Shown here: positions 1,015 to 36,058 of the stretch, one piece after another | Position numbering within the stretch: the first letter of the stretch is position 1 | Layout of the letters: the number at the start of each line of letters is the position of its first letter | Virus record (IMG/VR): IMGVR_UViG_3300048599_000735 | Span: 1-38,797 of that record | DNA from: a virus | Taxonomy: Duplodnaviria > Caudoviricetes | DNA length: 38,797 nt | Direction: 5' to 3' (one strand) | Position numbers and translations under genes: made by a program | The notes under the pieces: model-generated | What the model saw: only the letters and a program-made list of their open reading frames with translations | Told to the model about the DNA's origin: nothing | The model's database searches: none

Positions 1015-2943
1015 ATGAGTGGCGATTATCGTTGGGTCGAGGATTTCGACGACCTCATCCGTGCAATCGATTGCACGTTCGCGGAGACGGGCCGGCCGGT
1101 CGAGGTCGCGGCCCGGCTCGATAGCCAGGGCGGGCCTGCCATCGCGTTCACCATGGCAGCTGGCGCGGCGGACTGTCTCGATCTCTCGGGCGTGCTGTCC
1201 GATCATGCTGCCGCGGGCCTGCGGTTCCTGCTGACTTCGCCGCGGATCAGGTTGCGCGGCGCCAACTTCAAGGCCGACATGGGGTGGCTCGCCGCGCGGC
1301 TGGGCATCGACTGCACCAACTTCGCCTTCGACGCGCTGCTGGCGGGCTCGCTGCTCGACGAGAACCGCTCCAACAGCCTCGCCACCTACGCGACGCTCTA
1401 CATGCCCGCCGAGGAGGGGAGCGGCGAGGAGGAGACTCCGCACGACCCGCGCTTGCATCGCCTGGGCCGCGCCGTCGACGCCGCCTTCCAGTCCGCCGCC
1501 GCCATCCGCCGCGAACTGCTGGCATCGCCAGCACTCGCCCATTTCTACGTGACCCTGCTCCATCCCGCCTCGCAAGCCTTCGCCCGCCTCGAACAGCGCG
1601 GCGTCGTGGCCTCGCGCGACCGCTTCGAAGCGCTGCGCATCGAGCTGGAGGGTGAGGACGGCCGCGGCGGCGCGCTGGCCGATCTCGACCGCGAGGTGCG
1701 GGCGCTGCTGCCCGGCCGGCTCCGCATGAAATACGCCGACAACCTCGCCGTCCGCCCCGCGCTGCTGCGCGACTTCTTCTTCGGCACTGCGGGCCTCCAC
1801 CTCAAGCCGCGCATGGTGACGCCGCGCCACGGCGAGCCCTCGACCGCCAAGGCGCACCTCGCGATGTTCCACGACGTGCCCGAGGCGGCGGCGATGGTGA
1901 CGGTCCTCGAAGCGCGCAGCGGGGCGGCCAAGATGCTCTCGGCCTACGTGAAGGGCTTCCTCAAGCACCTGCACGCCGACGGCCGCTTCCATCCGAGCTA
2001 CATGCTGTTCGCCGGCCGAGCCTGCGACGACGATACGAGCGACAAGAGGGGCGACAGCGGCACCGTCACCGGCCGCACCTCCGCGCGCGATCCCGCCATC
2101 CAGACCGTGCCGAAGCGCGGGACGTGGGCGAAGAAGCTCCGCCGCTGTTTCGTGGCGCCGCCCGGCATGGCGATCTGGTCGACCGATGCGGCACAAGGCG
2201 AACTCAAGATTGCGGCCTGCCTCGCGGACGAGGCCAACATGCTGGCGGCCTATCGCGCCGGGCTCGACCTCCATGCCGTCACCGGCGCGTCGATGATGGA
2301 CATGCCGATCGACGCCTTCATGGCGCTGGCCGCCGACGTTCGGGATCGCGAGAAGATGGAGCGCTTCGAACTGGGCCGCTTCAAGGCCAAGGCCTGCAAC
2401 TTCGGCCTGCTCTACGGCATGCAGGCCAAGGGCTTCGTGCGCTACGCCTGGCAGACCTTCAAGATGGTGCTGAGCGAGACGCAGGCGCAGGAGATGATCG
2501 ACCGCTTCTTTGCGACCTATCCCGGCCTGCTCGACTGGCACGAGGCCGCGCGCAAGCAGGCGCGGCGCGACGGCGCCGTCGCCAATCCGTTCGGCAGGAT
2601 GCGCCACCTGCCGTGGATTCGCGCACAGGATCGCCAGATCGCAAGCCGCGCCGAACGCCAGGCGATCAACGCGCCGGTGCAATCGACACTCTCCGATCTC
2701 ACCTGCTGGGCCTTGAGCGAAATCGACCGGCAAATCCCCGAGGCCCAACCCTGCGCCATGATCCACGACGCCATCGTGGGCTACTGCCCCGAGGACCGCG
2801 CCGACGAAATCGGCCGGCAGATCGTCGAGGTCGCGGGCAACCTGCCGATCGAGACACTCTGCGGCTGGCGTCCCCAACTGCGCTTCTCCTTCGACCACGA
2901 ACACGGCCCCGACATGGGCTCGATGACGAAGATGAAGGTGTAA
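1015..2943 (+). CDS. polA: Phage-type family A DNA polymerase with degenerate 3'-5' exonuclease domain
   Basis: TVTGRTS..DPAIQTVP, motif A DAAQGELKI, motif B RFKAKACNFGLLYG, ERQAINAPVQS, motif C MIHDAI; GGAGG upstream. Confidence 0.92.
   Translation: MSGDYRWVEDFDDLIRAIDCTFAETGRPVEVAARLDSQGGPAIAFTMAAGAADCLDLSGVLSDHAAAGLRFLLTSPRIRLRGANFKADMGWLAARLGIDCTNFAFDALLAGSLLDENRSNSLATYATLYMPAEEGSGEEETPHDPRLHRLGRAVDAAFQSAAAIRRELLASPALAHFYVTLLHPASQAFARLEQRGVVASRDRFEALRIELEGEDGRGGALADLDREVRALLPGRLRMKYADNLAVRPALLRDFFFGTAGLHLKPRMVTPRHGEPSTAKAHLAMFHDVPEAAAMVTVLEARSGAAKMLSAYVKGFLKHLHADGRFHPSYMLFAGRACDDDTSDKRGDSGTVTGRTSARDPAIQTVPKRGTWAKKLRRCFVAPPGMAIWSTDAAQGELKIAACLADEANMLAAYRAGLDLHAVTGASMMDMPIDAFMALAADVRDREKMERFELGRFKAKACNFGLLYGMQAKGFVRYAWQTFKMVLSETQAQEMIDRFFATYPGLLDWHEAARKQARRDGAVANPFGRMRHLPWIRAQDRQIASRAERQAINAPVQSTLSDLTCWALSEIDRQIPEAQPCAMIHDAIVGYCPEDRADEIGRQIVEVAGNLPIETLCGWRPQLRFSFDHEHGPDMGSMTKMKV
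1060..1077. promoter_or_regulatory. 18-bp perfect palindrome CGTGCAATCGATTGCACG (copy 1)
   Basis: Perfect inverted repeat; identical copy at 4486-4503; function inferred. Confidence 0.6.
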
Positions 2944-2982
2944 CGCTGGGCGCGCGCCAGTGGACTGGCGCGCCCCCAGCGT
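2943..2982. repeat. GC-rich hairpin, 19-bp arms with one mismatch, after polA
   Basis: acgctgggcgcgcgccagt-gg-actggcgcgcccccagcgt; no U-tract. Confidence 0.7.
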
Positions 2983-3052
2983 GGACGCAGCCGAGGACCG
3001 GCGACGCCGGTGGCGATGGCGCGGGCGCGCGGGCCGTCCATAGGCTCGCGGC

Positions 3053-4528
3053 ATGAAGATCAAACAGCCCGAGATGCGTGTCACCTCGCTTGCTCCTGCC
3101 GGTGCGCCGGCGATGGCGTCGAACGCGCTGCAGGTCGAGGACGAATTCAACGCCTTCTACATGGCCGGCACGGACGGCGCGGCGGGGCATGTGCTGCGGC
3201 CGCCCTACGATCCGCGCGTGCTGGAGCGGCTCACGCAGGAGAACAATGTCCTGGGCGCCTGCATCGACGCCATGGTGGTCAACGTCGCCGGCACCGGGCA
3301 TCGCATCGAGCGCGAGACCAAACGCGCTGACGAACCCGACGAGCAGGACGATCCGGTCGCCTGCAAGCTCGAAGCCTTCTTCCGCGAGCCGTTCCCCGGC
3401 ACGAGCTTCCTCGCCATGCGCCGCGACCTCGAACGCGACATGGAGCGGGTGGGCTACGGCGCGCTGGAGATCATGCGCAACGCCGCGGGCGAAGTGGTGT
3501 TCCTGCGCAACACGCCGGCCCGCACCATTCGCCTCTGCAAACTCGATGCGCCGGCGCCGGTCGCCAAGACCGTCTCGCGCAATGGCGCGGAGATCTCCGT
3601 CAACGTCATGGTGCGCGAGCGCCGCTTCGTGCAGCTCATGGCCGGGCAGCTGCTGTTCTTCAAGGAGTTCGGCGCGTCGCGTCAGCTCGACAAGCACACC
3701 GGCCAGTGGGAAAGCGCCGAGCGGCCCGTGCCGGTTCAGGCGCGCGCCACCGAGCTTCTTTACTTCCAGGTGGGGCAGGACCCCAACAGTCCCTACGGCG
3801 TGCCGCGCTGGGAGGGGCAGATCCCCTCGGTCGTCGGCTCGCGCGCGGCGGAGGAGAACAACCTCACCTATCTTCAGTCGGGCGGCCTGCCGCCGGCGCT
3901 GATCGTGGTGCAAGGCGGCATCGTCGCCGGCGAGGCGCGGCAGGCGCTGGAGCGCCAGTTCGCGCCGGGCCAGAAGTCGCGCGCCGCCATCCTCGAAGTG
4001 CCCGCGACCGACGGCATGCTCGACAAGCCGGGCACGGTGAAGGTCACGGTCGAACGGTTCGGCCACGAGCGCGCCGGCGACAGCATGTTCGAGCGCTACG
4101 ACGACAAGTGCGCGGAACGGGTGCTGCGTGCCTTCCGCTTCTCGCCGCTGTTCCTCGGCAAGTCGGCCGACTTCAACTTCGCGACGGCCTATGCGTCCTA
4201 TCTCGCGGCAGAGAGCCAGGTGTTCGGGCCGGAGCGCCGTCTGTTCGACGAGATCGTGACGCGCAAGCTGCTGCCGGAACTGGGCGGCGCGGGCTATGTG
4301 TTCCGCTCCAATCCCATCGCCATCAAGGACGTGACGCAGCAGATCGAAGCGCTCGCGCTGGCGGCGGGCCTGCCGGGTATCGACCTCGAGAGCGTCGTCG
4401 ATCAGCTCAACAAGGCGGCCGAGCTGGAGCTGCAGTTCCGGTGTTCGGAGGCGCCACCTCAATCGTCGATCGCGCAATTGCGTCCCGTGCAATCGATTGC
4501 ACGCCCCGGATCGGAGGCCGAACCGTGA
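3053..4528 (+). CDS. Phage portal protein, PBSX/XkdE-like
   Basis: PPYDP..L, D.E..GYGALEI.RN..GEV, YGVPRW, N..YL..GG.P, FNFATA motifs; 491 aa; upstream of protease and capsid. Confidence 0.88.
   Translation: MKIKQPEMRVTSLAPAGAPAMASNALQVEDEFNAFYMAGTDGAAGHVLRPPYDPRVLERLTQENNVLGACIDAMVVNVAGTGHRIERETKRADEPDEQDDPVACKLEAFFREPFPGTSFLAMRRDLERDMERVGYGALEIMRNAAGEVVFLRNTPARTIRLCKLDAPAPVAKTVSRNGAEISVNVMVRERRFVQLMAGQLLFFKEFGASRQLDKHTGQWESAERPVPVQARATELLYFQVGQDPNSPYGVPRWEGQIPSVVGSRAAEENNLTYLQSGGLPPALIVVQGGIVAGEARQALERQFAPGQKSRAAILEVPATDGMLDKPGTVKVTVERFGHERAGDSMFERYDDKCAERVLRAFRFSPLFLGKSADFNFATAYASYLAAESQVFGPERRLFDEIVTRKLLPELGGAGYVFRSNPIAIKDVTQQIEALALAAGLPGIDLESVVDQLNKAAELELQFRCSEAPPQSSIAQLRPVQSIARPGSEAEP
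4486..4503. promoter_or_regulatory. 18-bp perfect palindrome CGTGCAATCGATTGCACG (copy 2), 3' end of portal
   Basis: Identical to 1060-1077. Confidence 0.6.
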
Positions 4529-4608
4529 GCCGAGCCCGCCAGGTGAAGACCTGGCTGCACCTGCTGCTTTACGCGCTGGCCTTCCACTGCACGCCGATCC
4601 CGGCATGA
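4525..4608 (+). CDS. 27-aa hydrophobic small ORF (MSRARQVKTWLHLLLYALAFHCTPIPA)
   Basis: GGAGG at 4513-4517; GTGA overlap with portal stop and ATGA overlap with next start. Confidence 0.45.
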   Translation: MSRARQVKTWLHLLLYALAFHCTPIPA

Positions 4609-4865
4609 GCCCGCTGCTGGGCCTGAAGCTCGCCGCCGCAGCACTAGCGTTGGCCATCGTCGCGGGCGCGCTGTGGTGGACCTATGCCGAAGGCAAGAGC
4701 GCCGGCCGCAACGAAGTCTCGACCCGGTCGATGGAGAAGGCGGCGGAGAAGACAAATGAAGGCATCAGGCTGCGCAATCAGGCGGCGCGTCGCGCTGCTG
4801 GCGACGACGACGACACTGCTTTCGAGCGCATGCGCCCCCGCGCCCGTGATGGTGCTGAGCCCTGA
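4605..4865 (+). CDS. Inner-membrane spanin (Rz-like)
   Basis: N-terminal TM helix LAAAALALAIVAGALWW then charged helical region; overlaps a lipoprotein ORF. Confidence 0.65.
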   Translation: MSPLLGLKLAAAALALAIVAGALWWTYAEGKSAGRNEVSTRSMEKAAEKTNEGIRLRNQAARRAAGDDDDTAFERMRPRARDGAEP

Positions 4866-5019
4866 TCCCTGTGCGCGCTTCTCCCGGCTGGAAATGACCG
4901 ACGCGCAGGTCGACGACGCCAAGCGTTCCGCCGAGAGCCGCCAGACCTGGCGCCCGTTCTTCAACCAGACGAACGCCCACAACGACGTGTTCGACGCGAC
5001 GTGCCTGAAGGCGAGGTGA
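4756..5019 (+). CDS. Outer-membrane spanin lipoprotein (Rz1-like)
   Basis: GGAG RBS, basic N-terminus, lipobox-like LLSSAC then Pro-rich segment; +1 frame overlap with the Rz-like gene. Confidence 0.6.
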   Translation: MKASGCAIRRRVALLATTTTLLSSACAPAPVMVLSPDPCARFSRLEMTDAQVDDAKRSAESRQTWRPFFNQTNAHNDVFDATCLKAR

Positions 5020-5026: not shown

Positions 5027-5491
5027 CTATTTCTTCAGGACGACATGCTCGAGTTCGAAATCGTCGGCGGAGGCGCCGAACATGGCGTAGTAGCCGCGAT
5101 GCTCGGGGTTCTTGAAGACGTCCTTGCGCGTCTCGAAGAACTCTTTGTCGTACCAGTTCACGCCGAACGAGATCGTCATGCCTTCGCGGAACGACGAGCT
5201 CCATTCCCAGAGAACAAGCAGTTCGGGCCGCAGCCGCAGCCTTTCATCCGACCAGCGCAGGAGCCGCACGCACTGGCGCAGGTCGCGTTCGTTGGAGAAA
5301 GTGATGCGGGCCTTGGTCTGGGCGTAGGGCTTGCGGCCGGCGGCAGGGCCCTCGGTGCCGCGCAGGATCATCACGCGCTGGGTGACGCCTTTGCGAAGTT
5401 CGCGGTCGAGTTCGTCGTCGATGTCCGGTAGCAGATCGTCGCCAATGCGCAGAAGGTCGCTTTCGTGACTCCGGTGTGAGTCTTGCACCAT
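5027..5491 (-). CDS. Hypothetical protein (154 aa), antisense to the phage genes
   Basis: GGGGGAGG RBS before ATG at 5491; protein-like composition (MVQDSHRSHE...HVVLKK). Confidence 0.75.
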   Translation of the reverse strand: MVQDSHRSHESDLLRIGDDLLPDIDDELDRELRKGVTQRVMILRGTEGPAAGRKPYAQTKARITFSNERDLRQCVRLLRWSDERLRLRPELLVLWEWSSSFREGMTISFGVNWYDKEFFETRKDVFKNPEHRGYYAMFGASADDFELEHVVLKK

Positions 5492-5674
5492 CGCTGCCTC
5501 CCCCGTTGAATTCTCGTCGGCGGATTGACGATGAATCCGTACCGCTCCCACGAAGGCGGGGACATCAGTATTTTGGCATATCAGAAACACAACCGGCGCC
5601 GCCCCTGATCGCGAACGCGCCGCCGCTGCATCATCCCGCTGAGCCTCGCCGTGTCGGGCTCTACCCTCCACACG

Positions 5675-6190
5675 ATGGACTGGAAGCCGATCGTCACGGT
5701 CGTGGCGCCGACCTTTGCCTGTGCGCTGGAAGGGCCGTTGAAGGGGCTGGCGGCGGGGGTGGCAGGGAAGGTGCTGCTGGAGCGCGACGACGCGCGGCCG
5801 GACGAGATTGTCGAGACGATCCTGAAGGAGCAGACGCCGGAGCTGATGCACCGGCTGCGGCGGGTCGAGGCCGCCATCGTCGAGCAGCAGCGCATGCTGG
5901 GCTTCACCTTCGCGGCGCTGCGGCCGGAGGTGCATCGCCGGCCGAGCCCGTGGGCGCACCTCGGCATCAACATCCTGGCGGCCGTCGTGCTCGGCATGTT
6001 CATGGCGGGCGTCTACTACGTCTTCAACAAGAAGCTGCCGGCCGACGAGCCCGCCTCGATTGCACTGATCTCGTCCGTGGTGGGCTATCTCGCGGCCAAC
6101 ACCACGCAGGTGCTGAGCTACTATTTCGGTTCGACGTCGAGCACCAACCGCCGCAGCGAGGCGATGACCGACGCGTTGCAGAACAAATAA
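5675..6190 (+). CDS. Putative holin (3TM holin-like family)
   Basis: MDWK..V..VAPT.A.AL.GP N-terminus; C-terminal TM helices ending QVLSYYFGS. Confidence 0.6.
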   Translation: MDWKPIVTVVAPTFACALEGPLKGLAAGVAGKVLLERDDARPDEIVETILKEQTPELMHRLRRVEAAIVEQQRMLGFTFAALRPEVHRRPSPWAHLGINILAAVVLGMFMAGVYYVFNKKLPADEPASIALISSVVGYLAANTTQVLSYYFGSTSSTNRRSEAMTDALQNK

Positions 6191-6895: not shown

Positions 6896-7510
6896 ATGTC
6901 TCCCCCCATGTCCCTCATCGAAGTCGCGATCAAGAAGCAGGACGCCGAACAGCAGATCGTGTTCGGGGAAGTCTTTGCCCCCGGCGTCACCGACGCGCAG
7001 GGCGACCGCATGTCGGCGGCGGAGATCGCCAAGGCGGCCTATCTCTTCATGGAAAAGGGCCGGCTGGCGAAGATCGACACCAACCACGATCTACTGCCCA
7101 ACGGTTCCTACATCGTCGAGACCTTCATCGCGCGCGCGGGCGATCCGACCTTCATCGCGGGCGCCTGGGTGATCGGCGTGAAGGTGCCCGATCCCGCGCT
7201 ATGGTCGGCCATCAAGAAGGGCGAGCTGAACGGCTTTTCCCTCGATGGCGCGGGCTTTCGCGAGGAAGTGACCCTGGAGGTCGAGATTCCCGAGGCGCTG
7301 TCGGGCCTTACCGACCGGGTTGGTGTCGGAGTCGAAGCCCACGCCCATCAGTTCACGGTCCGCTTCGATGCCGACGGCAATTTCCTCGGCGGCGAGACCG
7401 ATATCGTGCAGGGCCATCGCCACACCATCACGCGCGGCACGCTGACCGACGAGAGCGCGGGCCACAGCCATCGTTTCTCCTATGTCGAGGGGCTTCTCCA
7501 TGAATCGTGA
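6896..7510 (+). CDS. XkdF-like prohead serine protease with His-rich C-terminal repeats
   Basis: VFGEVFAP..DAQGD.M...EI.KAAY.F, IDTNHD, LW..IKKGELNGFSLDG; HAH, GHRH, GHSH repeats. Confidence 0.85.
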   Translation: MSPPMSLIEVAIKKQDAEQQIVFGEVFAPGVTDAQGDRMSAAEIAKAAYLFMEKGRLAKIDTNHDLLPNGSYIVETFIARAGDPTFIAGAWVIGVKVPDPALWSAIKKGELNGFSLDGAGFREEVTLEVEIPEALSGLTDRVGVGVEAHAHQFTVRFDADGNFLGGETDIVQGHRHTITRGTLTDESAGHSHRFSYVEGLLHES

Positions 7511-7970
7511 GGTCAAGAGGCGTGAAGTCAAAGCCAACGAACTCAGCGACGTCGACGTGCGCTTCGTGTCGCTGGTCAAGCGCGGCGCCAACCGCATCCC
7601 GTTCCGTCTCACCAAGGAAGACACAACCAAGATGCTCGATTTCGTGAAGCTCTTCCGCAAGAGCGACGAGGAGGCGAAACCCGCGCCGTCCTCGGCACCG
7701 CAGCCCGAGGCTCCGCACAAGGAGCCGTCCAAGGAGGAGAAGGATCCTGTCCTCGCGGCGCTCGCGCGCCTGGAGGAGGGACAGCGTGCCTTGGCCGAAA
7801 GCGTCGGCCAGCTCGTCGCCAAGGTGCAGAAGACCGATGCCCCCCTGTCCTATGGCGTCTCCAGTGTCGTGCTGGGCGAGGCCAATCGCGACCAGCCGGT
7901 GCGTCTCGCCAAAAGAGCAGGGGGCGCGGGTATCCCGAGGCTGCTCGATACCGGCCTGATCAAGCTCTGA
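7500..7970 (+). CDS. Putative capsid scaffold carrying a protease-fold segment
   Basis: ELSDVDVRFVSLVKRGAN N-terminus, Pro/Glu/Lys linker, short coiled coil; lies between protease and capsid. Confidence 0.6.
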   Translation: MNREVKRREVKANELSDVDVRFVSLVKRGANRIPFRLTKEDTTKMLDFVKLFRKSDEEAKPAPSSAPQPEAPHKEPSKEEKDPVLAALARLEEGQRALAESVGQLVAKVQKTDAPLSYGVSSVVLGEANRDQPVRLAKRAGGAGIPRLLDTGLIKL

Positions 7971-9038: not shown

Positions 9039-9659
9039 ATGAAGCTCGCCAGCCTGCTTTCCGTCCGGGAAGCGCTGGGTGTCGAGGCCGGCCAGGACAG
9101 CGACAACGCGATCCTGGCCGCGCTCGATGCCGCGACGGACGATATCGCGAGCCGCCTCCGCACGGGCTTCGAGCGGGTGACGGCGCGCGACGATTTCGCC
9201 GTGGAGATCGGCCAGTATCCCGCGGGCCATCTCGTACGGCTTGGCCTCTTGCGCGGGTTCCTCGTCGGGACGCCGACAGTGAAGGTCGCCCGCTCGCCCG
9301 CCGAGTTCGGCGTGGACGAGATCGACTTCACGGCAAAGGCGACCGTCGATCCCACGAAGGGCGTCGTGTCGATCGCCGGTGATGAAGCGCTCGGCGGCTT
9401 CCGGCCCTGGTGGTTCCGCGTCTCCTACACCGCGGGCTTCACCGCGACCGACGGCCAGCACTACGACGCCGTGCCGGCCTGGCTCGCGCTCGCCGCACGG
9501 CTGCATGCCCGCGTGGCGTTGAACGCGCATCCCATGTTCGTGCAGAACCAATCGACGGCCGATGCGCGCCTTCTCGAAGGCCAGCTCGTGCGCATTCTGG
9601 AGCGCCACGCGCGCTACATGCCCTGGGCCGAGACGCCGCGCGCCGGCGTCGTCGTCTAA
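9039..9659 (+). CDS. Head-tail connector/adaptor protein
   Basis: Immediately after capsid; V.YTAGF...VP.WL..AA motif. Confidence 0.65.
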   Translation: MKLASLLSVREALGVEAGQDSDNAILAALDAATDDIASRLRTGFERVTARDDFAVEIGQYPAGHLVRLGLLRGFLVGTPTVKVARSPAEFGVDEIDFTAKATVDPTKGVVSIAGDEALGGFRPWWFRVSYTAGFTATDGQHYDAVPAWLALAARLHARVALNAHPMFVQNQSTADARLLEGQLVRILERHARYMPWAETPRAGVVV

Positions 9660-10951: not shown

Positions 10952-11076
10952 TCTTCAGTTCTCTCGATAGTGACCGGAGCGCTTTGTACGGTCCCGAACG
11001 ACTGAAGCAAAGCCCGGTCCGTCAGGACCCGGCATGTATTTTCCGGAGTAGGCCCGCGTTTCGTCGACCGGGTCGA

Positions 11077-12337: not shown

Positions 12338-12389
12338 GCGTCGCCGTCTAGACTCCCAACGATTCCTTTAGGCCCAAGGAGGGGCTTCC

Positions 12390-24406: not shown

Positions 24407-24447
24407 GAGGAAACAGCCAAGCCGACCGCGAGCCGGGAGCCCGCCCC

Positions 24448-25429: not shown

Positions 25430-25465
25430 CCCATCCGAGGGCCCATCCGAGGGCCCATCCGAAGG
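25430..25465. repeat. 12-bp tandem repeat x3 (CCCATCCGAGGG)
   Basis: Two exact copies and one with a single mismatch. Confidence 0.8.
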
Positions 25466-25501
25466 GGAGCGGGCGGCGACGGGCGGTTCTGGAGGCGCAT
25501 T

Positions 25502-28500: not shown

Positions 28501-29767
28501 TACGTTCACCAGCGTCTTCGAGAGCGCGGCAGGCACCTACACCTACTGGGTGGCGGCGGTCGACAGCGGCGGCAACGAAGGCATGCCGCTGTCGGTGACG
28601 GCGGTGGTCAACCAGCCCCCGGATTACATACTGCGCACCGAAGACTACGCAGACTTGGGTGCTGGCCGCACGGGCCACGTGCTCACGAGCACAGCCGCGG
28701 GAGACACGTTTGCCGGCGTCACGTCGACCTGCGCCGTTACCGCCAACAAGACCTTCCGGTTCCAGATCTGGGTCAAAGCAGGCTCCCAGCCCGGCGTCGT
28801 GCGTCTGCATCTGCGCGACGGTGCCAACACCGAGTATGGCGCTTTCGACTTCACGCCTACGTCCACCTGGCGGCTGTACAGCGTGCAGACGACCTTCCCG
28901 TCGGGGGCGGTGCCTAACCTGGTCGTCTATGTGAACCCGTTGTCGACTGCGAGCGCAGCGGGGCAGACGCTGCTACTTGCCGACGCCGAAATCATCGAGG
29001 TGGGATCGCTCACCAACCTCATTGCTTCCGAGTTCGCGGGGGGCAGCTGGTACTATAGCAACAGCGCGGGCGCCCAGAACGTCGTGCCGGGACCTTTCGA
29101 CGGCGTGCTGACCAATCTCACGGTGCAGGCCGGTGTTCTCTATGGCCCCGCCGACACGACCGAGACGTGGCTGACGCACTTCACCGATCAGGGATGGGAC
29201 CAGCCGCAAGACCAGATCGACGCCGGTTACGTCGACTGGCTTGACCCCGGCCCGAGCACGGCGAAGTACGTCGAGGTGTTCGACTATGACTCGGTCGTGC
29301 AGGGAACTCTTGTCACGATCTCGCCGAGCAAGAACGATTTCTCTGGCTCGGTGTCCGTGTCCATTGGCCTGGAGAGCAGTCTCGACGGTGTGAACTGGAC
29401 GATGGTCGGTACGGGCTCGCAGCAGTATGTGTCGAACTTCCGCTACTTGCGCGTCACCCTCGACCTCAGCAGCGCAGGCGCGGTGTGCGCAATCTCGGCC
29501 ATCTCGGTCAAGCTCGCTTCCAAGATGAAGACCGACGCCGATACGGTCAATGCGAACGCCAGCGACAGCGGCGGCACGCTGGTGACGTTCAACACGCCAT
29601 TTGCGTCGGTGACTTCGATCCAAGTGAGCCCGGTGGGTACGGCCGCACGGTACGCCATCTATGACTTCGCTGGCGTGCCTTATCCGACGAGTTTCAAGGT
29701 GTTGGTGTTCGATGCCGCGGGCAACCGCATTTCCGGCCAGGTGAGCTGGACCGCACGAGGATACTAG
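25502..29767 (+). CDS. Lambda gpJ-like central tail tip / host specificity protein
   Basis: GG.GG N-terminus, EGPI.GL, WSDNPAWC.YDLLTN.RYGLG, EPRY.CN, GCTSRGQA.R.GKW; FNIII-like repeats and a CBM-like insert. Confidence 0.95.
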   Translation: MSSIIPSHTVFGRGGSGGKGGGKSEPVGRSPVEAPNSLQSRSIARFLDLWCEGPIHGLVNEDQSIYFDDTPLKNGDGTFNFTGVAFDTRYGFPFGSQTYMAGFPSSRNTVTLEGGQGVEIRKSNGGVVRTVNNPQANAVIVKISTPALYMQNNETGDINPYTSNFRIFVKAFGAASFVETHYVGFHGKTTSTYQRDYRVALPPGGAPWDIKIQRENDDDPAEWFKDRLYWTSYTEVVDGKLAHPNVAYCGVQIDTAQFNGSAPARSYDVKGLLIKIPSNYNPATRSYTGDWNGTFTTAWSDNPAWCFYDLLTNTRYGLGLDPAAVNPWKWDLYTIGQYCDAVDESGAYVGVDDGAGGKEPRYTCNMLLNSRQEAYAVVNTMASIFRGMPFWSSGAVRATADMPKAPVALFTNANVLGGEFKYEGTSLKARHTTAKVVWNDPADAYRPAVEWVDDPEGVALYGVRQIDIVAYGCTSRGQAIRAGKWVLDTERTATETVHFRSGLELADKFPGDIVSIADENYAQQIFGGRIVSSTLSSVTVDQAYAVLAAFSYTLHITMPDGTLQKRTLTNTAGETATFTWSTPLHEEPLAGAVWAITSTSLEARQFLLVSNIEVGPATFEAMGVFHDPAKFDRVEKGIVVPPPPYNVTPTGPIVPPTGPSSMMRLYQVGSAVRAAVLLSWAKSDDGRVYAYEVQVKGPQDIDYQTIGTTSMTSIEYQDSQEGTYDFRVRAKALNGKTSAWLEATNITLTTAIPPSDVGRVEKVYDPDGVAIKWPAVEDLNVDYYEVRRGPVPAEEPNTQEKFEILWNAATKVGTPRELRHTEKKVATGKYRYWVRAVSKPQGIYSVTPSHVDIDVEAPPMPVVTAVLEADQYKLSWPGVVSSGFFVEEYEIRYGADWTPDDPLSLISRVKGTSFSGPVRWGGNRKFWVAAKDKAGNYSTAGNVSLMINAASSVSNLTAQVVDNNVLLRWSSAISVLPIDHYAVRKGPTWGAGLSIGDKSGTFTSVFESAAGTYTYWVAAVDSGGNEGMPLSVTAVVNQPPDYILRTEDYADLGAGRTGHVLTSTAAGDTFAGVTSTCAVTANKTFRFQIWVKAGSQPGVVRLHLRDGANTEYGAFDFTPTSTWRLYSVQTTFPSGAVPNLVVYVNPLSTASAAGQTLLLADAEIIEVGSLTNLIASEFAGGSWYYSNSAGAQNVVPGPFDGVLTNLTVQAGVLYGPADTTETWLTHFTDQGWDQPQDQIDAGYVDWLDPGPSTAKYVEVFDYDSVVQGTLVTISPSKNDFSGSVSVSIGLESSLDGVNWTMVGTGSQQYVSNFRYLRVTLDLSSAGAVCAISAISVKLASKMKTDADTVNANASDSGGTLVTFNTPFASVTSIQVSPVGTAARYAIYDFAGVPYPTSFKVLVFDAAGNRISGQVSWTARGY

Positions 29768-29768
29768 A

Positions 29769-30479
29769 ATGGCCGACTGGAACAATCCGCAGAACGCATC
29801 GCTCTACACGGACGTGATGCAGATGATCAAAGATCGAGACTACGCGGCCATGACGCTAAACAGCGTCGCCGAGACGTTCACCAATCTGCCCGACGGCGCG
29901 ATGAAGTGGCATCCCGGCAATCAAAGGCTGGAAAGAATATGGAGCGGTGTGTGGCAAGCCCAGCTCATAGGCCTGGGGGGTGGCGGTACAGGGGCCAATT
30001 CCGCCGCAGGCGCGCGTAGCAATCTCGGGTTGGGCGCCGTCGCGGTCGAGAATGTCCTTACTGTTGCCAAGGGCGGTACCGAGGCCACGACGGCGGCCGG
30101 GGCTCGCGACAAGCTCGGCCTGGGCTCGATGGCGACGCAGAACGGCAACGCCGTGTCGATCACCGGCGGCAGCATTTCCGGCATCGCGGCGCTCGGCATC
30201 GCCGTGGGCGGCACGGGTGCGAACAGCGTCATCGGCGCTCGCGCCAATCTCGGGCTGGGCGGCCTTGCGATCCTGCACGCCGTCGGGGTGGGCGAGATCT
30301 GGGACGGCAACGTCACCACCGCGAAGCTCGCCGATGGGGCCGTGACGACCATCAAGATCGCCGATGGCCAGGTCACGGACGCGAAGATCGCCTCCGGCCT
30401 CAACGGCAAGGGCAGCCGCATCGTGTCGACGGGCACACCGTCGGGCGGTAACAACGGCGACATCTGGTACCAGGTCTAA
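29769..30479 (+). CDS. Short tail fibre protein
   Basis: 3x GGT.A.....AR..LGLG, VT..K(L/I)ADG repeats, C-terminal PSGG.NGDIWYQ. Confidence 0.75.
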   Translation: MADWNNPQNASLYTDVMQMIKDRDYAAMTLNSVAETFTNLPDGAMKWHPGNQRLERIWSGVWQAQLIGLGGGGTGANSAAGARSNLGLGAVAVENVLTVAKGGTEATTAAGARDKLGLGSMATQNGNAVSITGGSISGIAALGIAVGGTGANSVIGARANLGLGGLAILHAVGVGEIWDGNVTTAKLADGAVTTIKIADGQVTDAKIASGLNGKGSRIVSTGTPSGGNNGDIWYQV

Positions 30480-30483
30480 GGCC

Positions 30484-31377
30484 ATGGCGAACGAGAACAC
30501 CTTCGTGAAGGATGCGGGCGCCTGGAAGATGGCGACCGCGATCCACGTCAAGGACGCCGGCGTCTGGAAGACGGTGAAGGGCATCTGGACGCACGACGGC
30601 GGCGTCTGGAAGAAGGTCTACTTCAAGTCGTTCCGCTTCAATCACACCTACAGCACCGTCACGGCGAGCCCGAGCGTGGCGACGCTCGCGACATCGCTGG
30701 GATGGAACGGCAGCGATCCCGTAGTGGGCAACATCGTCGTCGATGCCAACCTCTACTCGACCTCGACCGGCGTGGCGGCCTTCTATTGCCACGGCCTGCC
30801 GGCGGGATCGGTGATCAATCTCACCGTGAATGCCGGAAGGACCATCGGCGGCTGCGGCGGGCAAGGCGGTAACGGCGTGGCCGGCGTCAACGGCGAGACG
30901 GGCGGGCTCGCGATGTACGTGCGCAACACGCTGAACGTCACCAACAACGGGACGATCGCGGGCGGCGGCGGCGGCGGCGGTGTCGGCGGCGACTATGTCG
31001 ACTGGGGCGCCAGCCTCTTCATCGGCGGCTCGGGCGGCGGCGGCGGACGCGGCGGCGGCGGCGCGGGCGGCGGCATCAACAATGCGGGCTACACGCCGGG
31101 CGGTCCGGGCAACAACGGCTCCTTCGCGGGCGCGGGCACGGGGGGCGCGGGCGTCTCCGTGTCGCGCGGCGGCGAGGAGGGCAGCCCGATCACCTGGCAC
31201 ACCGGCGGCAACGGCGGCAACGGCGGCGACTGGGGCCAGCCGGGCAGCGCCGGCAGCACGGCGAGCAACGGCGGCGGCGGCCCGGGCGCGGGTGGCGCGG
31301 CGGGCTCGGCCGTCGACGGCAACTCCTTCGTGACGTGGCTGGCGACAGGCAGCCGGTTCGGGAGCTTGGCGAACTAG
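30484..31377 (+). CDS. Glycine-rich adhesin (T-even gp38-like)
   Basis: N-terminal K.(A/G)G.WK Trp repeats, N.GTIAGGGGGGG, multiple polyglycine runs. Confidence 0.7.
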   Translation: MANENTFVKDAGAWKMATAIHVKDAGVWKTVKGIWTHDGGVWKKVYFKSFRFNHTYSTVTASPSVATLATSLGWNGSDPVVGNIVVDANLYSTSTGVAAFYCHGLPAGSVINLTVNAGRTIGGCGGQGGNGVAGVNGETGGLAMYVRNTLNVTNNGTIAGGGGGGGVGGDYVDWGASLFIGGSGGGGGRGGGGAGGGINNAGYTPGGPGNNGSFAGAGTGGAGVSVSRGGEEGSPITWHTGGNGGNGGDWGQPGSAGSTASNGGGGPGAGGAAGSAVDGNSFVTWLATGSRFGSLAN

Positions 31378-31416: not shown

Positions 31417-31731
31417 TTACGCCACCGGCTGGCTCACCTGCGTCACCGGCTGGAGGTCGGTGAACTTGGCGATGTCGGCGAAGACTTCGCCGGCGCGCGG
31501 GCCGGTGAGGCTCGCCTTCAGGGCGTCGGCGCTCTCGAAGGTGAGGTGGGCCATCAGGATGTAGGGGGCGGGGCTGCCGTCGCCGGCGGAAAGGCCGCGC
31601 ATCACCTGCACCGTCTTGAGCCCCGTCGACGCGAAAGCCGACTTGACCAGCGGGATGTGATTGCTGTCGTAGTAGGCGTTGTCGAAGCGCGCGCCGTCGC
31701 GGCGGGGATAGAGGACGCTGAAGACGACCAT
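31417..31731 (-). CDS. EthD-family protein
   Basis: SVLYP....FD..YY...H.PLV, DI.KFTD.QP..Q.S. Confidence 0.88.
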   Translation of the reverse strand: MVVFSVLYPRRDGARFDNAYYDSNHIPLVKSAFASTGLKTVQVMRGLSAGDGSPAPYILMAHLTFESADALKASLTGPRAGEVFADIAKFTDLQPVTQVSQPVA

Positions 31732-31787
31732 GGGAACCTCGCGAGCGTGATGGTGGTTGTGCACGTGACGCGGACTCGACTGTCGCG

Positions 31788-31825
31788 ATAGAGACCTTAG
31801 CGGATAATAGGGACCTTAGCCGACA
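31788..31825. repeat. 19-bp imperfect tandem direct repeat upstream of EthD gene
   Basis: atagagaccttagcggata / atagggaccttagccgaca. Confidence 0.65.
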
Positions 31826-31876
31826 ATCGCCGCCGGGGTCATCGGGCGGTCGCCGGAGGGCCGCGGCGAAAGCGGA

Positions 31877-32377
31877 TTACTCCGGCATCAACTGCAGGTC
31901 GGTGTCCTGCAGTTTCAGGCCGCATTGCGTCAGCAGGCAATGCGCCTGGCCGCGATGGTGGGTCTGGTGGTTGAAGAAATGCGCGACGAAGATCCAGCGC
32001 CGGCCGCTGACGTCGCGATGCGAGCTCTTGGAAAAATAGCTGAGCTGGCCCGCCAGCCACGCGGGCGCCAGCGCATCGGCCCACTGGACGATGTCGGCAT
32101 CGCAGGCGATGCGTTCGTCCTGCAGCGCCTCCCAGGTGGGCCAGGTCGAGACGGCGTCGGCCATCGCCGCGGGTGGCGTCGGCGTTCCCTCGAAGCGGCT
32201 GAGCCACAGCCGGTCGGCCCAGACGAGATGCGCCAGCGTCGCGTGGATCGAGCCGAAGAAGGCGCCGCGGTCGCGCCGACGCTCCTCGTCGGCGAGGCTC
32301 GAGGCCGCGCCGTAGAGGCTTTCGTTCTGCCAGCGATTGTAGCGCGCCAGGCGTTGGGCGTAGGCGACGTCGATCAT
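31877..32377 (-). CDS. DinB/YfiT-family putative metalloenzyme
   Basis: YNRWQN, GAFFGSIH.TL.H...AD..WL.RF, HFFNHQTHHRGQ. Confidence 0.92.
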   Translation of the reverse strand: MIDVAYAQRLARYNRWQNESLYGAASSLADEERRRDRGAFFGSIHATLAHLVWADRLWLSRFEGTPTPPAAMADAVSTWPTWEALQDERIACDADIVQWADALAPAWLAGQLSYFSKSSHRDVSGRRWIFVAHFFNHQTHHRGQAHCLLTQCGLKLQDTDLQLMPE

Positions 32378-32504: not shown

Positions 32505-33107
32505 GTGCTGGTGCTGGCTCTGACCGGATCGCCTGGATCCGGCAAAACGACCGTGGCGGACCATCTGGTGCTGCGTCACGGCTTCCGGCGGCTGCGCTTC
32601 GGCGAGCCGTTGAAGACCATGCTGGGGGCGTTGATTGCCGCGCAGGGGCAGACGCCGGAGTATGTGAGGCGCTGTCTGGAGGGCGATCTCAAGACGCGGC
32701 CGGTTCGCGAGCTGGCGGGGCGGACGCCCAGGCATGCATTGCATGCACTGGCCAACGGCTGGGGGCGCGACATGATCGGGCCCGACCTCTGGGTGCAGTG
32801 CTGGCGCGGCGCCGTCGAGCCGATGCTGCAGGCGGGGCCGGTGGTGGCCGAGGATTGCAGCCGCTTCGACGAGGTCGACATGGTGCGCGCGCTGGGCGGG
32901 CTGGTCTGGCGGATTGTACGGACCGACGGGCGCACCGACGGGCGCGACGGCGACGACTCCGGCTCTGCCACGGCGCCCGATCCCGAGCAGGCGGCCTTCG
33001 AGGTCGATGCCAACCTCTTAAACAACGGCGCGGTGCCGGCGCTGCTGCTGCACGTCAACCAGCTCCTGCGCGACTATGTGCGGCGCCAGCAGGCGAGGAC
33101 CCCGTGA
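32505..33107 (+). CDS. Phage deoxynucleoside monophosphate kinase
   Basis: Walker A LTGSPGSGKTT, F.EPLK.ML, TPR..L..L..GWGR.MI..D.WV, D..RF.E. Confidence 0.85.
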   Translation: MLVLALTGSPGSGKTTVADHLVLRHGFRRLRFGEPLKTMLGALIAAQGQTPEYVRRCLEGDLKTRPVRELAGRTPRHALHALANGWGRDMIGPDLWVQCWRGAVEPMLQAGPVVAEDCSRFDEVDMVRALGGLVWRIVRTDGRTDGRDGDDSGSATAPDPEQAAFEVDANLLNNGAVPALLLHVNQLLRDYVRRQQARTP

Positions 33108-34078
33108 CCACGCTCAACCGCTGCATCGAGGTCGCGGGCGGCGACAGGGTCGGCCGCTTCCTGTATCGGCTGCATCGCTGGACGGCCTTCACGCGCATCG
33201 TGCGCGGCGGCGTCAAATGGGTCGCGCTCACCTACGCGCAATGGGCGGACGAACTCGCCGTCTCCTACACGCAGTTCAAATACCTGCTCGAGAAGGCCGC
33301 GGCCGCCGGCCAGGTCGTGCGCGAGCAGCATCGCTTCCGCGGACTGAAGGTGCTGTTCGTGCGCCTGTCGGACGCCACGCGGGCGGCGATTGCCCATACC
33401 GGTGCCCAGGCCGGTGCCCAGACCGGTGAGGGCAAAAGTGCCCAGACCGGTTTGGGCAAAACTGCCCAACTCATAAGAAACCCGACTCAAGAAACGATTG
33501 AAGAAACCAAGATTGCGAGCGGCCCGGCGGCCGCCGCGGCACCAGCTCCAACGCCAGCTCCAACACCAGTTCCAACGCTGGCCGCGACGAAGGTCGCGAC
33601 ACTGGAAGCGCTGTGGCGGGAAGCGCGGCCGTCGGCGCCGATCACCGCCAAGATGCGCGGCCAGTTCCGCCACCTCGTCCGCACCCTGCGCGACGGCGAG
33701 GCGGAGCGGGTGGTGCGCTTCGCCCTGGCGCACTGGCCGCGGGTCGTGCGCGCCGCCGAAAAGCACCACGGCGCGTTCAAGTCGCCCGACGTGCCGCAGC
33801 TCGGGTTTCTCGTGAAACACATCGAGGCGGTGCGGAGCCTGACCAACAAACCACCTCACCCTGAGGAGCCGCACGCAGTGCGGCGTCTCGAAGGGTGGGC
33901 CGCAGACGCGGCGCTTCGGCCTTCTGTCGTCCTGAGCGTAGCGAAGGACCTAATCGCCGCTTGCAACCGGCATGAGATCCTTCGCTGCGCTCAGGATGAC
34001 AAGAGAAGCAGCGCGCGCCCTCGGCCCGCGATCATGACCTATCGCGAGATGCTGGCGCTGGAAGGGATCGCGGCGTGA
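33104..34078 (+). CDS. Putative replication initiator (N-terminal winged helix, internal iterons)
   Basis: W...TY.QWA.EL..S..Q....L HTH; GTGA-coupled; upstream of loader and DnaB. Confidence 0.6.
   Translation: MTTLNRCIEVAGGDRVGRFLYRLHRWTAFTRIVRGGVKWVALTYAQWADELAVSYTQFKYLLEKAAAAGQVVREQHRFRGLKVLFVRLSDATRAAIAHTGAQAGAQTGEGKSAQTGLGKTAQLIRNPTQETIEETKIASGPAAAAAPAPTPAPTPVPTLAATKVATLEALWREARPSAPITAKMRGQFRHLVRTLRDGEAERVVRFALAHWPRVVRAAEKHHGAFKSPDVPQLGFLVKHIEAVRSLTNKPPHPEEPHAVRRLEGWAADAALRPSVVLSVAKDLIAACNRHEILRCAQDDKRSSARPRPAIMTYREMLALEGIAA
33391..33515. repeat. Iteron-like repeats plus A-rich tract (candidate origin)
   Basis: TGCCCA(G/T)(A/G)CCGG x4 (33391, 33403, 33415, 33439), partial at 33463, then three AAGAAAC units. 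Confidence 0.6.
33854..33898. repeat. Second host repeat family (CTCACCCTGAGGAGC..GCGTCTCGAAGGGTG), in frame within the CDS
   Basis: Resembles an alphaproteobacterial intergenic repeat (from recall); internal hairpin gccgcac-gca-gtgcggc. Confidence 0.55.
33925..34001. repeat. Host REP/MITE-like element, copy C, in frame within the initiator CDS
   Basis: Both arms present; translated as VVLSVAKDLIAACNRHEILRCAQDD. Confidence 0.85.
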
Positions 34079-34647
34079 GCGGGGAGCCGTGGTTCAAGCC
34101 TCATGGCGTGCTCGATCCGGAGCGGCATGCGGCGTTGATCGCCAACCGCGACGCCATCGCGCGGGATGCGGGGATACCGGTGCATCTGCTGTGGCAGAAG
34201 CTGCCGGCGGCGCTGACGCCTGTGGAGCGGGACTGGCTGGCGCGGTTCCATCGCCAGCGCGGCGAGGGACGCTGCGGCCTGCTGCTGACGGGCGAGGCTC
34301 CCGCGCTCGATCCGTTGCAGCGCATCGGCGCGATGGCGGGGTGCCTGTCGCGCAACTTCGTGCGGGCGCGGGTCGTGCCGCTGCTAGAGGCGCTGGAAGC
34401 GGTGGCCGACGGCGCGCCGATCGCGGCGACCTGTCTCCTCGTTCCCGACTTCGTGCCCGATCGCGCCACCGTGCGCGAGGCGCCGGCGTGGCGGGTGGCG
34501 CAGCTCACGGCGCTGCTCACCGCGCGCTGGAGCACGTCGGGGCTGCAAACCGTGCTCTACGCGCCGAGCCTCGCCGACGCCGGCCGCGAATATGGCGGCT
34601 TCGTCGCCGACCTGCTGCGCAACCATTATCTCGAGGTCGCGATATGA
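34075..34647 (+). CDS. DnaC/IstB-like helicase loader remnant lacking Walker A
   Basis: Lies between initiator and DnaB; AGIP, GLLLTG without GKT, LLVPDF, LL..R....QT. Confidence 0.5.
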   Translation: MSGEPWFKPHGVLDPERHAALIANRDAIARDAGIPVHLLWQKLPAALTPVERDWLARFHRQRGEGRCGLLLTGEAPALDPLQRIGAMAGCLSRNFVRARVVPLLEALEAVADGAPIAATCLLVPDFVPDRATVREAPAWRVAQLTALLTARWSTSGLQTVLYAPSLADAGREYGGFVADLLRNHYLEVAI

Positions 34648-34663
34648 GGCGTGCTTTCCCTTC

Positions 34664-34773
34664 TGTCATCGCGCGCGGGGCAGCCCCGCGCTGGAACGAA
34701 GTGAAGGATCTCATGGCGGTTGCCTCACCGATTGCGGGCGGCGATGAGATCCTTCGCTGCGCTCAGGATGACA
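34664..34773. repeat. Host REP/MITE-like element, copy D
   Basis: Same right arm; hairpin-interrupted left arm as in copy A. Confidence 0.85.
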
Positions 34774-34789
34774 ATGAGGAGCCCCACTG

Positions 34790-36058
34790 ATGCTCTCCTC
34801 CGCGCAGCGTTATCTCGCTTCCGTCATCGCCGAGGGCAAAGTCGAGACGCTTCTGAAGCACGGGCCGGTCGCGCATCTCTTCGCAGGGCACGAGGAGCGC
34901 TTGTGGAATTACTTCGACCGCCACGTGAAGACCTACGGCACCCTGCCGGACTTCGCCCTGGTGAAGGCCGACACCGGCTTCGATCTCGCGGCACAGACGC
35001 AGCCCGCCGCCTTCTATCTCGACCGCGCGCGCGACAACCACTTGCACCGCAGCCTCGTGTCGCTGCTGGCCGAGGTCCATCACAAGCACCTCGCCGGCGC
35101 GAATGCCAATCCGCGCGAGGCGCTGAATCTCCTCGGCAACGCGGTGATGGCGCTGTCGGTGCAGAACAACGGCGCGCTGGTGATGGACTATCGCCGCGCG
35201 CAGGACGCGATCATGCAGGCCTTCAAGGCCAAGATGATGGACGCAGGGACCATGGGCCTGCAGCTCGGCTGGCCGACGCTCGACGCGATGACGGGCGGCC
35301 TCGGCACCGGCGACATGATCGGGCTCGCGGGACGTCCCGCGGCGGGCAAGACGTGGTTCATGCTGTGGATGGCGCTGCATGCCTGGGCGGTGCAGGGCAA
35401 GGTGCCGCTGTTCGTCTCGATGGAGATCAAGCCGCTGGTCATCGTGCAGCGCCTGCTCGCCATCCACGCGAAGCTGCCGTTCAAGGGCATCCGCGATGCA
35501 GCACTTACGACGACGCAGTATCGGCAGATGAAGCACGTCCTCGTCGAGAGCGCGCAGAGCCCGGTGCCGTTCCATGTCGTCGACGGCAACCTCGCGGCGT
35601 CGGTGGCCGACCTGCATGCGCTCTGCCGCCAGCTCAAGCCCGACTTCGTGGTGATCGACGGCGCCTATCTGCTGACGCATCCCACCGAGCGCGACCGCTT
35701 CAAGCGCGTGGCGGAGAACGCGTCGCTGATCAAGCAGCACATCTGCGACCTCGCGCCGACGGCGTGCTCCTGGCAGTTCGCGCGGCCGGCGAAGGGCGGG
35801 AGCGGGAGCGGCGGGAGCGGGAAGAAGCCGCCGCAGACCGGCGACGACATCGGCTACTCCGACGCGATCCTGCAACTCTCCTCGCTGGCGCTGGGCCTGA
35901 TGCAGCCCGAGAGCGCCGAGACGATCAAGCAGCGCGAAGTCTCGATCCTGAAGGGCCGCAACGGCGAGACTGGTTCGTTCACGGTGAACTGGAATTTCGA
36001 TTGGACGACGGACTTTTCGGAAGTCACGGAGCGGGCGGGGGAGCTGGAGGTGGAGTAG
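34790..36058 (+). CDS. dnaB: DnaB-like (SF4) replicative helicase
   Basis: GWPTLD.MTGGL, Walker A GRPAAGKT, FVSME, VVIDG.YL, Q..R, SD.I.Q, LK.RNG. Confidence 0.92.
   Translation: MLSSAQRYLASVIAEGKVETLLKHGPVAHLFAGHEERLWNYFDRHVKTYGTLPDFALVKADTGFDLAAQTQPAAFYLDRARDNHLHRSLVSLLAEVHHKHLAGANANPREALNLLGNAVMALSVQNNGALVMDYRRAQDAIMQAFKAKMMDAGTMGLQLGWPTLDAMTGGLGTGDMIGLAGRPAAGKTWFMLWMALHAWAVQGKVPLFVSMEIKPLVIVQRLLAIHAKLPFKGIRDAALTTTQYRQMKHVLVESAQSPVPFHVVDGNLAASVADLHALCRQLKPDFVVIDGAYLLTHPTERDRFKRVAENASLIKQHICDLAPTACSWQFARPAKGGSGSGGSGKKPPQTGDDIGYSDAILQLSSLALGLMQPESAETIKQREVSILKGRNGETGSFTVNWNFDWTTDFSEVTERAGELEVE

Follow-up and report, generated by a model that had tools for sequence, protein, structure and literature searches.

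The window analysed here, a trimmed virus record of 38,797 bp (IMGVR_UViG_3300048599_000735) whose proteins map onto a contig of 939,635 bp, is, judging from its genes and their order, the core of an immobilised, gene-reduced prophage of the RcZahn/DLP5 phage family. Members of its portal and DnaB clusters are named Reyranella massiliensis and Reyranella sp., which places the host in Reyranella. The element is inherited beside purEK by Reyranella of the R. massiliensis group under purifying selection. At its locus the recombinase, ParB-nuclease, RecA and resolvase genes have been lost, the initiator with its origin, the tape measure and the fibre have been swapped, and an accessory-gene zone of 190-220 kb lies around the element. 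The element likely copies itself in place and packages host DNA from nearby, and it would then be a young gene transfer agent (GTA)-like system derived from a new phage lineage.

The course of events that we propose follows the Bartonella GTA (BaGTA). Induction of the grounded prophage would start run-off replication in place from the element's own origin; the element and the neighbouring chromosome would be packaged by the headful mechanism into tailed particles; these would be released by lysis, as BaGTA does, and the DNA would be delivered to related cells and recombined there. To its central part, replication in situ with headful packaging, like BaGTA or a permanent form of lateral transduction, we give an even chance.

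Ancestry and chromosomal site of the element

Among 232 phage records the best matches to the capsid were RcZahn (65% identity), RHph_TM16, DLP3/DLP5 and the SIO-2 group, and the capsids of RcZahn, DLP3/DLP5 (Delepquintavirus), SIO-2 and Rhizobium phage RHph_TM16 are 49-65% identical to that of the Reyranella element; a search of PDB sequences returned 0 matches. The RcZahn/DLP5/SIO-2 group and the element share the order terminase-PolA-portal-protease-scaffold-capsid-tail-initiator-helicase-primase-SSB (single-stranded DNA-binding protein)-gp66, as well as a dispersed palindrome. Since the window follows RcZahn from gp15 to gp53, its replication genes are those that normally follow the virion block downstream, not a module added to it. 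A first-pass annotation of this DNA had supposed a PBSX-type or chimeric novelty; what we find instead is a reduced RcZahn/DLP5-family prophage with replication genes of its own.

The head of RcZahn measures 87 nm, and its genome of 101.6 kb is circularly permuted and headful-packaged (PMC8601537). DLP5 lysogenises as a plasmid (PMC5834331), and DLP3 is temperate according to its paper (PMC7326821), a text without any mention of palindromes. A full-length prophage of the family, with an integrase and tRNA-Ser at both ends, was found in Roseococcus genome G004. Whereas the RcZahn/DLP5/SIO-2 phages are autonomous and 80-100 kb long, the Reyranella element is chromosomal and carries tens of kb of host-type cargo. 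Unlike them it has no integrase, ParB-nuclease, RecA, resolvases or most of the small genes, its scaffold and gp22 are shortened and its PolA is proofreading-less. Homologs of gp1, gp6, gp58-gp65 and gp95 (maintenance and recombination) are absent from the Reyranella loci examined; the G004 prophage has them.

The annotation's roughly 30 open, co-oriented phage genes came to 34, all on the + strand from 1015 to 36058 and with zero internal stops. Pfam and PHROGs identified PolA, portal, XkdF protease, capsid, adaptor, terminator, tube, tape measure protein (TMP), lambda-type M/L/K/I/J, a gp38-type fibre, a deoxynucleoside monophosphate (dNMP) kinase and DnaB (aa, amino acids; REP, repetitive extragenic palindromic sequence):

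1015..2943, +, family-A DNA polymerase (PolA), RcZahn gp15 homolog, which lacks ~128 aa at its N-terminus and the proofreading residues of ExoI and ExoIII
3053..4528, +, portal (Pfam/PHROGs)
4605..5019, +, Rz/Rz1-like spanin pair, overlapping genes, Rz match weak (E 8e-4)
5651..6190, +, membrane protein, putatively holin-like (phrog_1544, a PHROG of unknown function)
6896..7510, +, XkdF-type maturation protease (PF14550)
7500..7970, +, scaffold with in-frame internal deletion, 156 aa against 474 in RcZahn, both ends kept
8030..9007, +, major capsid protein, 65% identical to RcZahn gp19
9039..10499, +, head-tail adaptor, internally shortened gp22-like gene (9659-10036), tail terminator
11579..16398, +, gp24-like protein, tail tube (12390-13661), inserted genes, tail assembly chaperones
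16445..19507, +, tape measure protein, its middle part low in GC and variable by species
19504..31377, +, lambda-type tail tip M, L, K, I, J, variable fibre (19910-22393), gp38-type adhesin
32505..33107, +, dNMP kinase (phrog_139)
33104..34078, +, replication initiator, homologous to RcZahn gp51, carrying an in-frame REP insertion close to the 3' end
33403..33510, no strand, predicted origin inside the initiator gene: iterons (33403-33470), then an A-rich stretch
34075..36058, +, gp52-like helicase partner (putative loader) and DnaB helicase

Among 130 family genomes the element was present in eight, which form group A (G001, G002, G003, G020) and group B (G056, G078, G083, G086). Capsid and portal were each detected in seven genomes and the terminase in 17; the nine terminase matches outside the carriers are six copies of an orphan operon, described below, and three short fragments. 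Completeness is unreported for these genomes, so absences are soft. Capsid identity is 98-99% in group A, where the gene is present, and 77-78% in group B. Group A hosts are mutually nearest by PurK (92-93%, next 84%; no match in G003), and group B hosts together with G084 are nearest by GlmS (90-91%, next 86%).

In G001, G002 and G020 the element lies between DUF2390 and DUF465-purE-purK and spans from 88 kb (G020) to 120 kb (G002). Among 27 purK loci of non-carriers the same two flanks adjoin in 26, the remaining one ending at a contig edge; they also adjoin in the group-B hosts, where the element is elsewhere: it adjoins recD2 and glmUS, has the terminase beside the portal and spans ~34 kb in G083. 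No att repeat or tRNA was found at the purEK site, and both were rejected as integration target; there is no Tyr/Ser recombinase within the element span of G001, G002 or G020. A Fic gene was considered as a flank common to A and B and rejected: being absent at 27/27 non-carrier purK loci, it is cargo.

Across ~119 kb of G002 the phage genes run in RcZahn order from helix-turn-helix (HTH) gp135 to gp66: HTH, DUF6127, endolysin (phrog_181, E 3e-33), a gp2-like gene, terminase, gp7, PolA with the window block, and then gp54, primase, SSB, HTH and gp66. Terminase, endolysin and primase lie in sister genomes 18-40 kb upstream or a few kb downstream of the window-equivalent block, and we infer that the window's own chromosome carries these outer modules; the primase is expected past the restriction-modification cargo that follows DnaB. 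This agrees with an element split by host-type genes, its terminase and endolysin outside the window, as first proposed. The window is a slice, and its ends are not the borders they were taken for, LysR and the restriction-modification system being internal cargo. A far-off orphan terminase, for which a genome search had been advised, was rejected, as the gene lies within the same skeleton. The gaps of the skeleton hold accessory host-type genes that vary by species: extracytoplasmic-function sigma factor (ECF)/FecR/TonB sets, glutathione S-transferases, regulators, toxin-antitoxin and restriction systems (130 genes surveyed each, with gene calls made in the present analysis). The ribosome-binding motif CAAGGAGGG marks skeleton genes, eight times in the window and 11 times in G002, always on the element strand; none was found in 70 kb at two empty sites.

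Within the window, as the annotation had it, Pfam and PHROGs gave no integrase, terminase, endolysin or phage repressor and a tRNA search no tRNA; the sole HTH found there is the C-protein of the restriction-modification system (37205-37447). A still-mobile temperate phage of 90-120 kb, excising by an unrecognised route, is very improbable. G002 does have all virion modules, and the span is near the ~100-kb headful of the family; against this stand the missing recombinase and att site, the one fixed site per host group, host-level synonymous divergence (see below) and a capsid search of viral contigs in which the 80 best of 248 matches all stay at or below 76% identity, in a set from which records very close to the window may be missing.

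Selection, gene reduction and module exchange

We estimated synonymous divergence (dS) and its ratio to nonsynonymous divergence (dN/dS) by pairwise Nei-Gojobori comparison; high GC content at third codon positions biases all values alike. Between G002 and G020, dS is 0.27 for portal, 0.27 for terminase and 0.29 for PolA versus 0.33 and 0.26 for host purK and azlC; between G083 and G056 it is 0.45 for portal and 0.47 for tube versus 0.48 and 0.47 for host glmS and recD2. Because the dS of the element equals that of the host at a shared site with shared cargo, divergence and selection occurred in place. In group A, dN/dS is 0.04-0.09 for capsid, 0.10-0.13 for portal, 0.10-0.20 for tube, 0.15-0.18 for terminase, 0.08-0.17 for DnaB and 0.20-0.28 for PolA, with flanking host genes at 0.04-0.45; primase gives 0.18-0.25 and endolysin 0.14-0.19. 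The ATPase and nuclease motifs of the terminase are intact. With core genes at 0.04-0.3, a fixed site and no recombinase or att site, the earlier idea of a resident, selected, non-excising element is upheld. Its long residence is not: the element is young and patchy, with two captures and losses, and a genus-wide ancient GTA was rejected on the count of carriers.

The shortening of genes is a second mark of the Reyranella loci. The gap from protease to capsid is 474-592 bp in 14/14 Reyranella-type loci; in 91 other loci of the family it is 803 bp or longer (136 loci surveyed, partly redundant, of which 31 had no protease). The middles of the scaffold and of the gp22-like gene were deleted in frame with both protein ends retained, and gp22 is gone in group B; the short scaffold hints at a changed head. 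In PolA the ExoI and ExoIII residues are missing from all four group-A copies aligned, and the ExoI D-x-E is present in 32/32 other family loci covering the site (31 by pattern and L016 by eye; partly redundant). A and B appeared as sister groups in a 13-taxon tree (support 97), a grouping rejected once L257 and L217 were added: group B is then sister to L257 with support 100. This placement, with the full gp22 of L257, means that the two groups were captured separately and that their shortening is partly parallel. L257 itself is a viral contig of 64% GC whose scaffold has 246 aa and in which no chaperone lies in the 5.7 kb that follow the tube; it may represent a third grounded copy, at an earlier stage.

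A slowly decaying cryptic prophage, recently immobilised, whose signal of selection stems from its phage past or from self-protection and whose cargo sits in neutral space, seems to us unlikely. It would account for the three cases of partial or nearly complete loss in closely related hosts, for the patchy distribution, the REP insertions and the lost proofreading, and purifying selection on defective prophages is said to be common (reportedly found by Bobay et al. in 2014). It does not account for an element dS equal to that of the host where both site and cargo are shared, for deletions in frame that keep both protein ends, for an expansion reaching ~45 kb outside the element, or for palindromes at orthologous host intergenic sites.

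Tape measure, fibre, gp38 and DUF7936 diverge between species far more than the core genes do. The four-taxon split supported by DnaB and gpK is not that of most genes. Lysis genes are retained in both groups, the endolysin of group B being GH19-like (recognised by eye from motifs), and the phage DnaB is missing from group B. In G083 (G083:C8:21104-26736, L041) the endolysin and five structural-looking genes stand between spanins and protease, an arrangement of group B that is absent from group A. Such divergence of fibre, gp38, DUF7936 and TMP, as in the turnover of tailocin fibres, together with the retained lysis genes and a group B with head and tail but no DnaB, would suit a PBSX-like killer particle, kept since it kills or damages related strains, with any DNA packaging incidental. 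We hold this to be an unlikely explanation: capsid and terminase are intact and strongly conserved and killing alone does not need them, the tail is non-contractile and has no sheath, and both the flanking plasticity zone and the replication genes of group A are left unexplained.

Predicted origin, accessory-gene zone and dispersed palindrome

A predicted origin near 33.4 kb, first suggested from the sequence, coincides with the iterons and A-rich stretch at 33403-33510. RcZahn has repeats at the same place in its initiator gene, and in G001 and G020 a different initiator N-terminus goes together with different iterons. A second initiator-gene fragment, 69% identical to the resident copy, lies beside a palindrome and far from the element at ~1,775 kb of G020:C1 (L406) and in G043:C20 (L403). 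Within the window initiator a REP-type palindrome (33921-34006) is read in frame, likewise in G001, and G002 and G020 have other inserts there.

Around the element the backbone interval measures 190 kb in G020 and more than 220 kb in G002, versus 23 kb in G124 and 18 kb in G119, both non-carriers. On each side about 45 kb of the gain falls outside the element; farther out, synteny is close to 1:1. Bartonella has a plasticity zone that contains the BaGTA origin and is amplified by run-off replication (PMC2697382). The accessory-gene zone of Reyranella resembles it, which adds to the analogy with BaGTA that the annotation had drawn. Read-depth peaks at 6.8, 24.3 and 33.9 kb were considered as amplification and rejected, being REP repeats. 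RNA runs X15 and X16 gave low-depth contigs over much of the window; contigs show neither transcription nor its level, DNA carry-over is possible, and they are not used as evidence. A scan for sigma-70 promoters at 31.3-36.2 kb had 0 matches, and a scan for LexA boxes a single one, within the restriction gene.

A 16-bp palindrome is scattered over the window, with up to 2 mismatches:

1061..1076, no strand, GTGCAATCGATTGCAC, first of eight window copies
4487, 10278, 13704, 14718, 14784, 24264 and 31390, the other copies

The eight matches compare with 0 in 100 shuffles. In the form TGCAAT-NN-ATTGCA it is evenly spread in the phage family, with 8 copies in RcZahn and 14 in DLP5 in 40 kb, and a variant occurs 18 times in G004. 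Genome-wide, exact copies of the degenerate palindrome number 9-25 in 8/8 carriers and 0 in 113/122 other genomes including G084; a reversed-palindrome control gave one match in 130 genomes. In G020, 19 of 26 copies lie outside the element, several of them at intergenic host positions common to group-A genomes (20 sites inspected), and one adjoins the second initiator fragment. The palindrome sites of G043 are orthologous to group-A sites and this genome is also without purK, so its element locus is probably missing from the assembly. Five outside copies inspected in G083 (L409-L413) share ~40 bp of flanking sequence; some copies have thus spread as a repeat, and the flanks suggest a dispersed composite repeat. 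Tight palindrome clusters on one or two contigs in two genomes without the element (G057:C91 and C390; G109:C51:553990-559360) are probably other mobile elements.

A homolog of gp66 occurs in exactly the eight carriers among the 130 genomes, G020 included, and could be aligned in 0/5 palindrome-bearing non-carriers. Its model (pLDDT 84.5) has a fold that resembles ParB/Spo0J, Noc and Raf1 domains, which fill the top 19 rows of the fold comparison (VIA) at Z 8.7-9.6, values that are weak for helical proteins as they lie below ~13; for the ParB/Noc DNA-binding domains Z is 8.7-9.5, with a root-mean-square deviation of 3.0-3.2 over 108-114 residues. The sequence has no Pfam ParB match, and its profile found nothing significant in PDB. 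A palindrome copy lies 78-88 bp ahead of gp66 in DLP5 and RcZahn; with 3 loose copies in 40 kb of SIO-2 and none directly before gp66 in G004, this pattern is not universal. The ParB/Noc-like gp66 homolog is the predicted binder of the scattered palindromes; the two end HTH proteins (seven carriers each) are alternative candidates. The 16-bp palindromes of ParB-parS, Noc-NBS and KorB-operator systems are likewise scattered over a replicon, and the DNA-binding fold of ParB/Noc systems resembles that of the gp66 model. Unlike them, the gp66 homolog has no CTPase domain in its model, is of phage origin and is a predicted binder only. The literature on ParB gave general papers only for this pair.

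These observations could also be read as an immunity or defence relic against RcZahn-like phages, with a gp66-type protein acting on incoming palindromes, or the shortened scaffold and the terminase interfering, and the rest hitch-hiking or helper-dependent. The family-wide, even spread of the palindrome with its copy before gp66 in two phages would fit, as would gp66 in all carriers including G020, the swapped modules, which imply contact with related phages, and the orphan ParB-methylase/small open reading frame (ORF)/terminase operon of six other genomes. We think this improbable, since hitch-hiking would not yield dN/dS of 0.04-0.2 over ~25 structural and replication genes, and host-wide palindrome copies would be unexplained.

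The orphan operon itself consists of a ParB-DNA methylase fusion, an ORF of ~130-160 aa and a family-type large terminase, without capsid or portal, at varied sites of six Reyranella genomes (G090:C11, G091:C236, G103:C58, G108:C13 (broken), G109:C9 and G114:C3; L132-L141). It is possibly a relic, a satellite or a defence module.

Returning to the GTA-like reading, its most far-reaching form, which we put forward as a doubtful, speculative proposal, would have Reyranella ground RcZahn-like phages twice, shorten the same head and tail genes in parallel, keep an error-prone in-situ replicon that amplifies a 200-kb zone, and seed the chromosome with a ParB-like-site palindrome that marks or regulates host DNA like phage DNA: a GTA in the making. 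A phage palindrome spread over a host chromosome would be a measurable mark of domestication, and its spread also suggests that phages of a widespread group have a ParB-like protein and target site not described before.

Known particle systems, weight of the evidence and cargo

BaGTA also has phage-derived particle genes and a phage origin fixed in a high-plasticity zone (PMC2697382, PMC9662315). It is a chimera of two phages and genus-wide, whereas the Reyranella element is known from genes alone and limited to two species groups, with packaging and replication from one phage and its own polymerase, primase and SSB. The Rhodobacter capsulatus GTA (RcGTA; Rhodogtaviriformidae) shares siphovirus-type head-tail genes, vertical inheritance and lysis genes apart from the main cluster. 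Its capsid, protease and terminase are of other lineages, and it has a distal-tail/megatron set in ~14 kb, where the Reyranella element has a lambda-type tail tip and kept replication genes in 90-120 kb. A compact RcGTA-type head-tail cluster with GTA tail-tip genes is thus not what we see (lambda M/L/K/I/J, XkdF protease).

PBSX of Bacillus is a non-excising defective prophage with a contractile tail. It resembles the element in its XkdF/XkdG-type head proteins and in not excising; the element differs by its non-contractile lambda-type tail, its own replication module and its Gram-negative host. No sheath or baseplate was matched in the window (Pfam/PHROGs). A tailocin has a tail without head or packaging genes, and here capsid, portal, protease and terminase are present and strongly conserved; the tailocin-like particle once proposed does not hold, because the capsid is the most conserved gene. 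In lateral transduction, phages such as P22 and staphylococcal phages replicate in situ and package the adjacent chromosome by headfuls, and these prophages still excise. The predicted likeness lies in in-situ replication with headful packaging; the Reyranella element appears unable to excise.

For GTAs we used the definition in PMC9662315. Two of its features, caudovirus-derived particle proteins and full endogenisation, often at several loci, are seen, the second in sister genomes and presumably in the window's own chromosome. As to mostly vertical inheritance and co-divergence with the host, element dS equals host dS within each group and the hosts are nearest by PurK and GlmS, but there were two captures, losses and mosaic genes. 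The definition further names packaging of mostly random host DNA, inability to package the whole genome and delivery of DNA to other cells, all of them hypothetical for this element, which is accordingly not filed as a GTA.

Several points weigh against the GTA-like reading. Carriers are 8/130 genomes only, from two captures. G020 has lost ~11 kb from Rz1 to the chaperone, and with it protease, capsid and tube (the junction shows a short shared sequence and no N run); the tail tube of G001 is interrupted by an internal stop, and G084 retains only gp7 and one cargo gene. Some genes are less constrained, with dN/dS of 0.51-0.78 in the initiator and 0.45-0.54 in gp38, besides 0.26-0.73 in the gp2-like gene and a few short genes. 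Group B has no phage DnaB and is under equal selection, which means that retention does not depend on replication. The plasticity zone is based on two carriers versus two non-carriers without a genome-wide control, and contig depth in the probable source run, which was uninduced, is flat at ~10-11 across the window including the origin contig. The Foldseek E-values of the gp66 ParB match (0.7-1.2) are not significant and its structural Z is weak. Finally, particles, packaged DNA, transfer and expression of the element are predictions only.

How prophages turn into gene transfer agents is still an open problem, since the GTAs known so far are old and have lost their ancestors. In the present case there are close relatives of full length (RcZahn, DLP5 and the intact Roseococcus prophage), two independent captures of young age, loci that are intact, half lost or lost altogether, and hosts that can be cultured, so that the order of the steps can be worked out and tested. 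Publications on Reyranella with gene transfer agents, prophages or phage capsids include none on this element, as judged by title and start of abstract, subscription journals not being covered.

The remaining features of the window are cargo:

1..969, +, LysR regulator, between the terminase region and PolA
5027..5491, -, antisense cargo gene
10547..11376, -, DoxX and a small secreted-type gene
31417..32377, -, EthD and DinB-family genes (domain search)
36106..38797, no strand, SacI-like endonuclease, C-protein and C5 methylase, a low-GC restriction-modification system inserted after DnaB

The 45-bp gap of the annotation is confirmed by the end of LysR at 969 and the start of PolA at 1015; LysR is cargo inside the element and not its border, being found in G002 and not ahead of PolA in G001, G020 or L210. 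The antisense DoxX, EthD, DinB and two hypothetical genes are all present, the host palindromic repeats are six REP half-sites at four places, and the core GC is host-like at 0.669, with 0.667-0.671 in host DNA, 0.575 in the TMP middle and 0.565 in the fibre.

Elsewhere, a C58-family cysteine peptidase-like cargo gene (PF03543, E 3e-8) lies near the left end in G002:C42:161743-162354 and is common to G001 and G020. In G083 a DUF3141 gene is in three pieces (C8:8900-11078), and a three-integrase RIT-type element lies 17 kb outside the group-B element (C8:65222-68345). A 64% homolog of the left-end HTH was detected at G080:C235:3059-3292, in a genome where no other element gene was found. Ten genes are 100% identical between G001:C91 and G114:C3 (185-205 kb), across two species genomes, which is probably bin contamination in G001.

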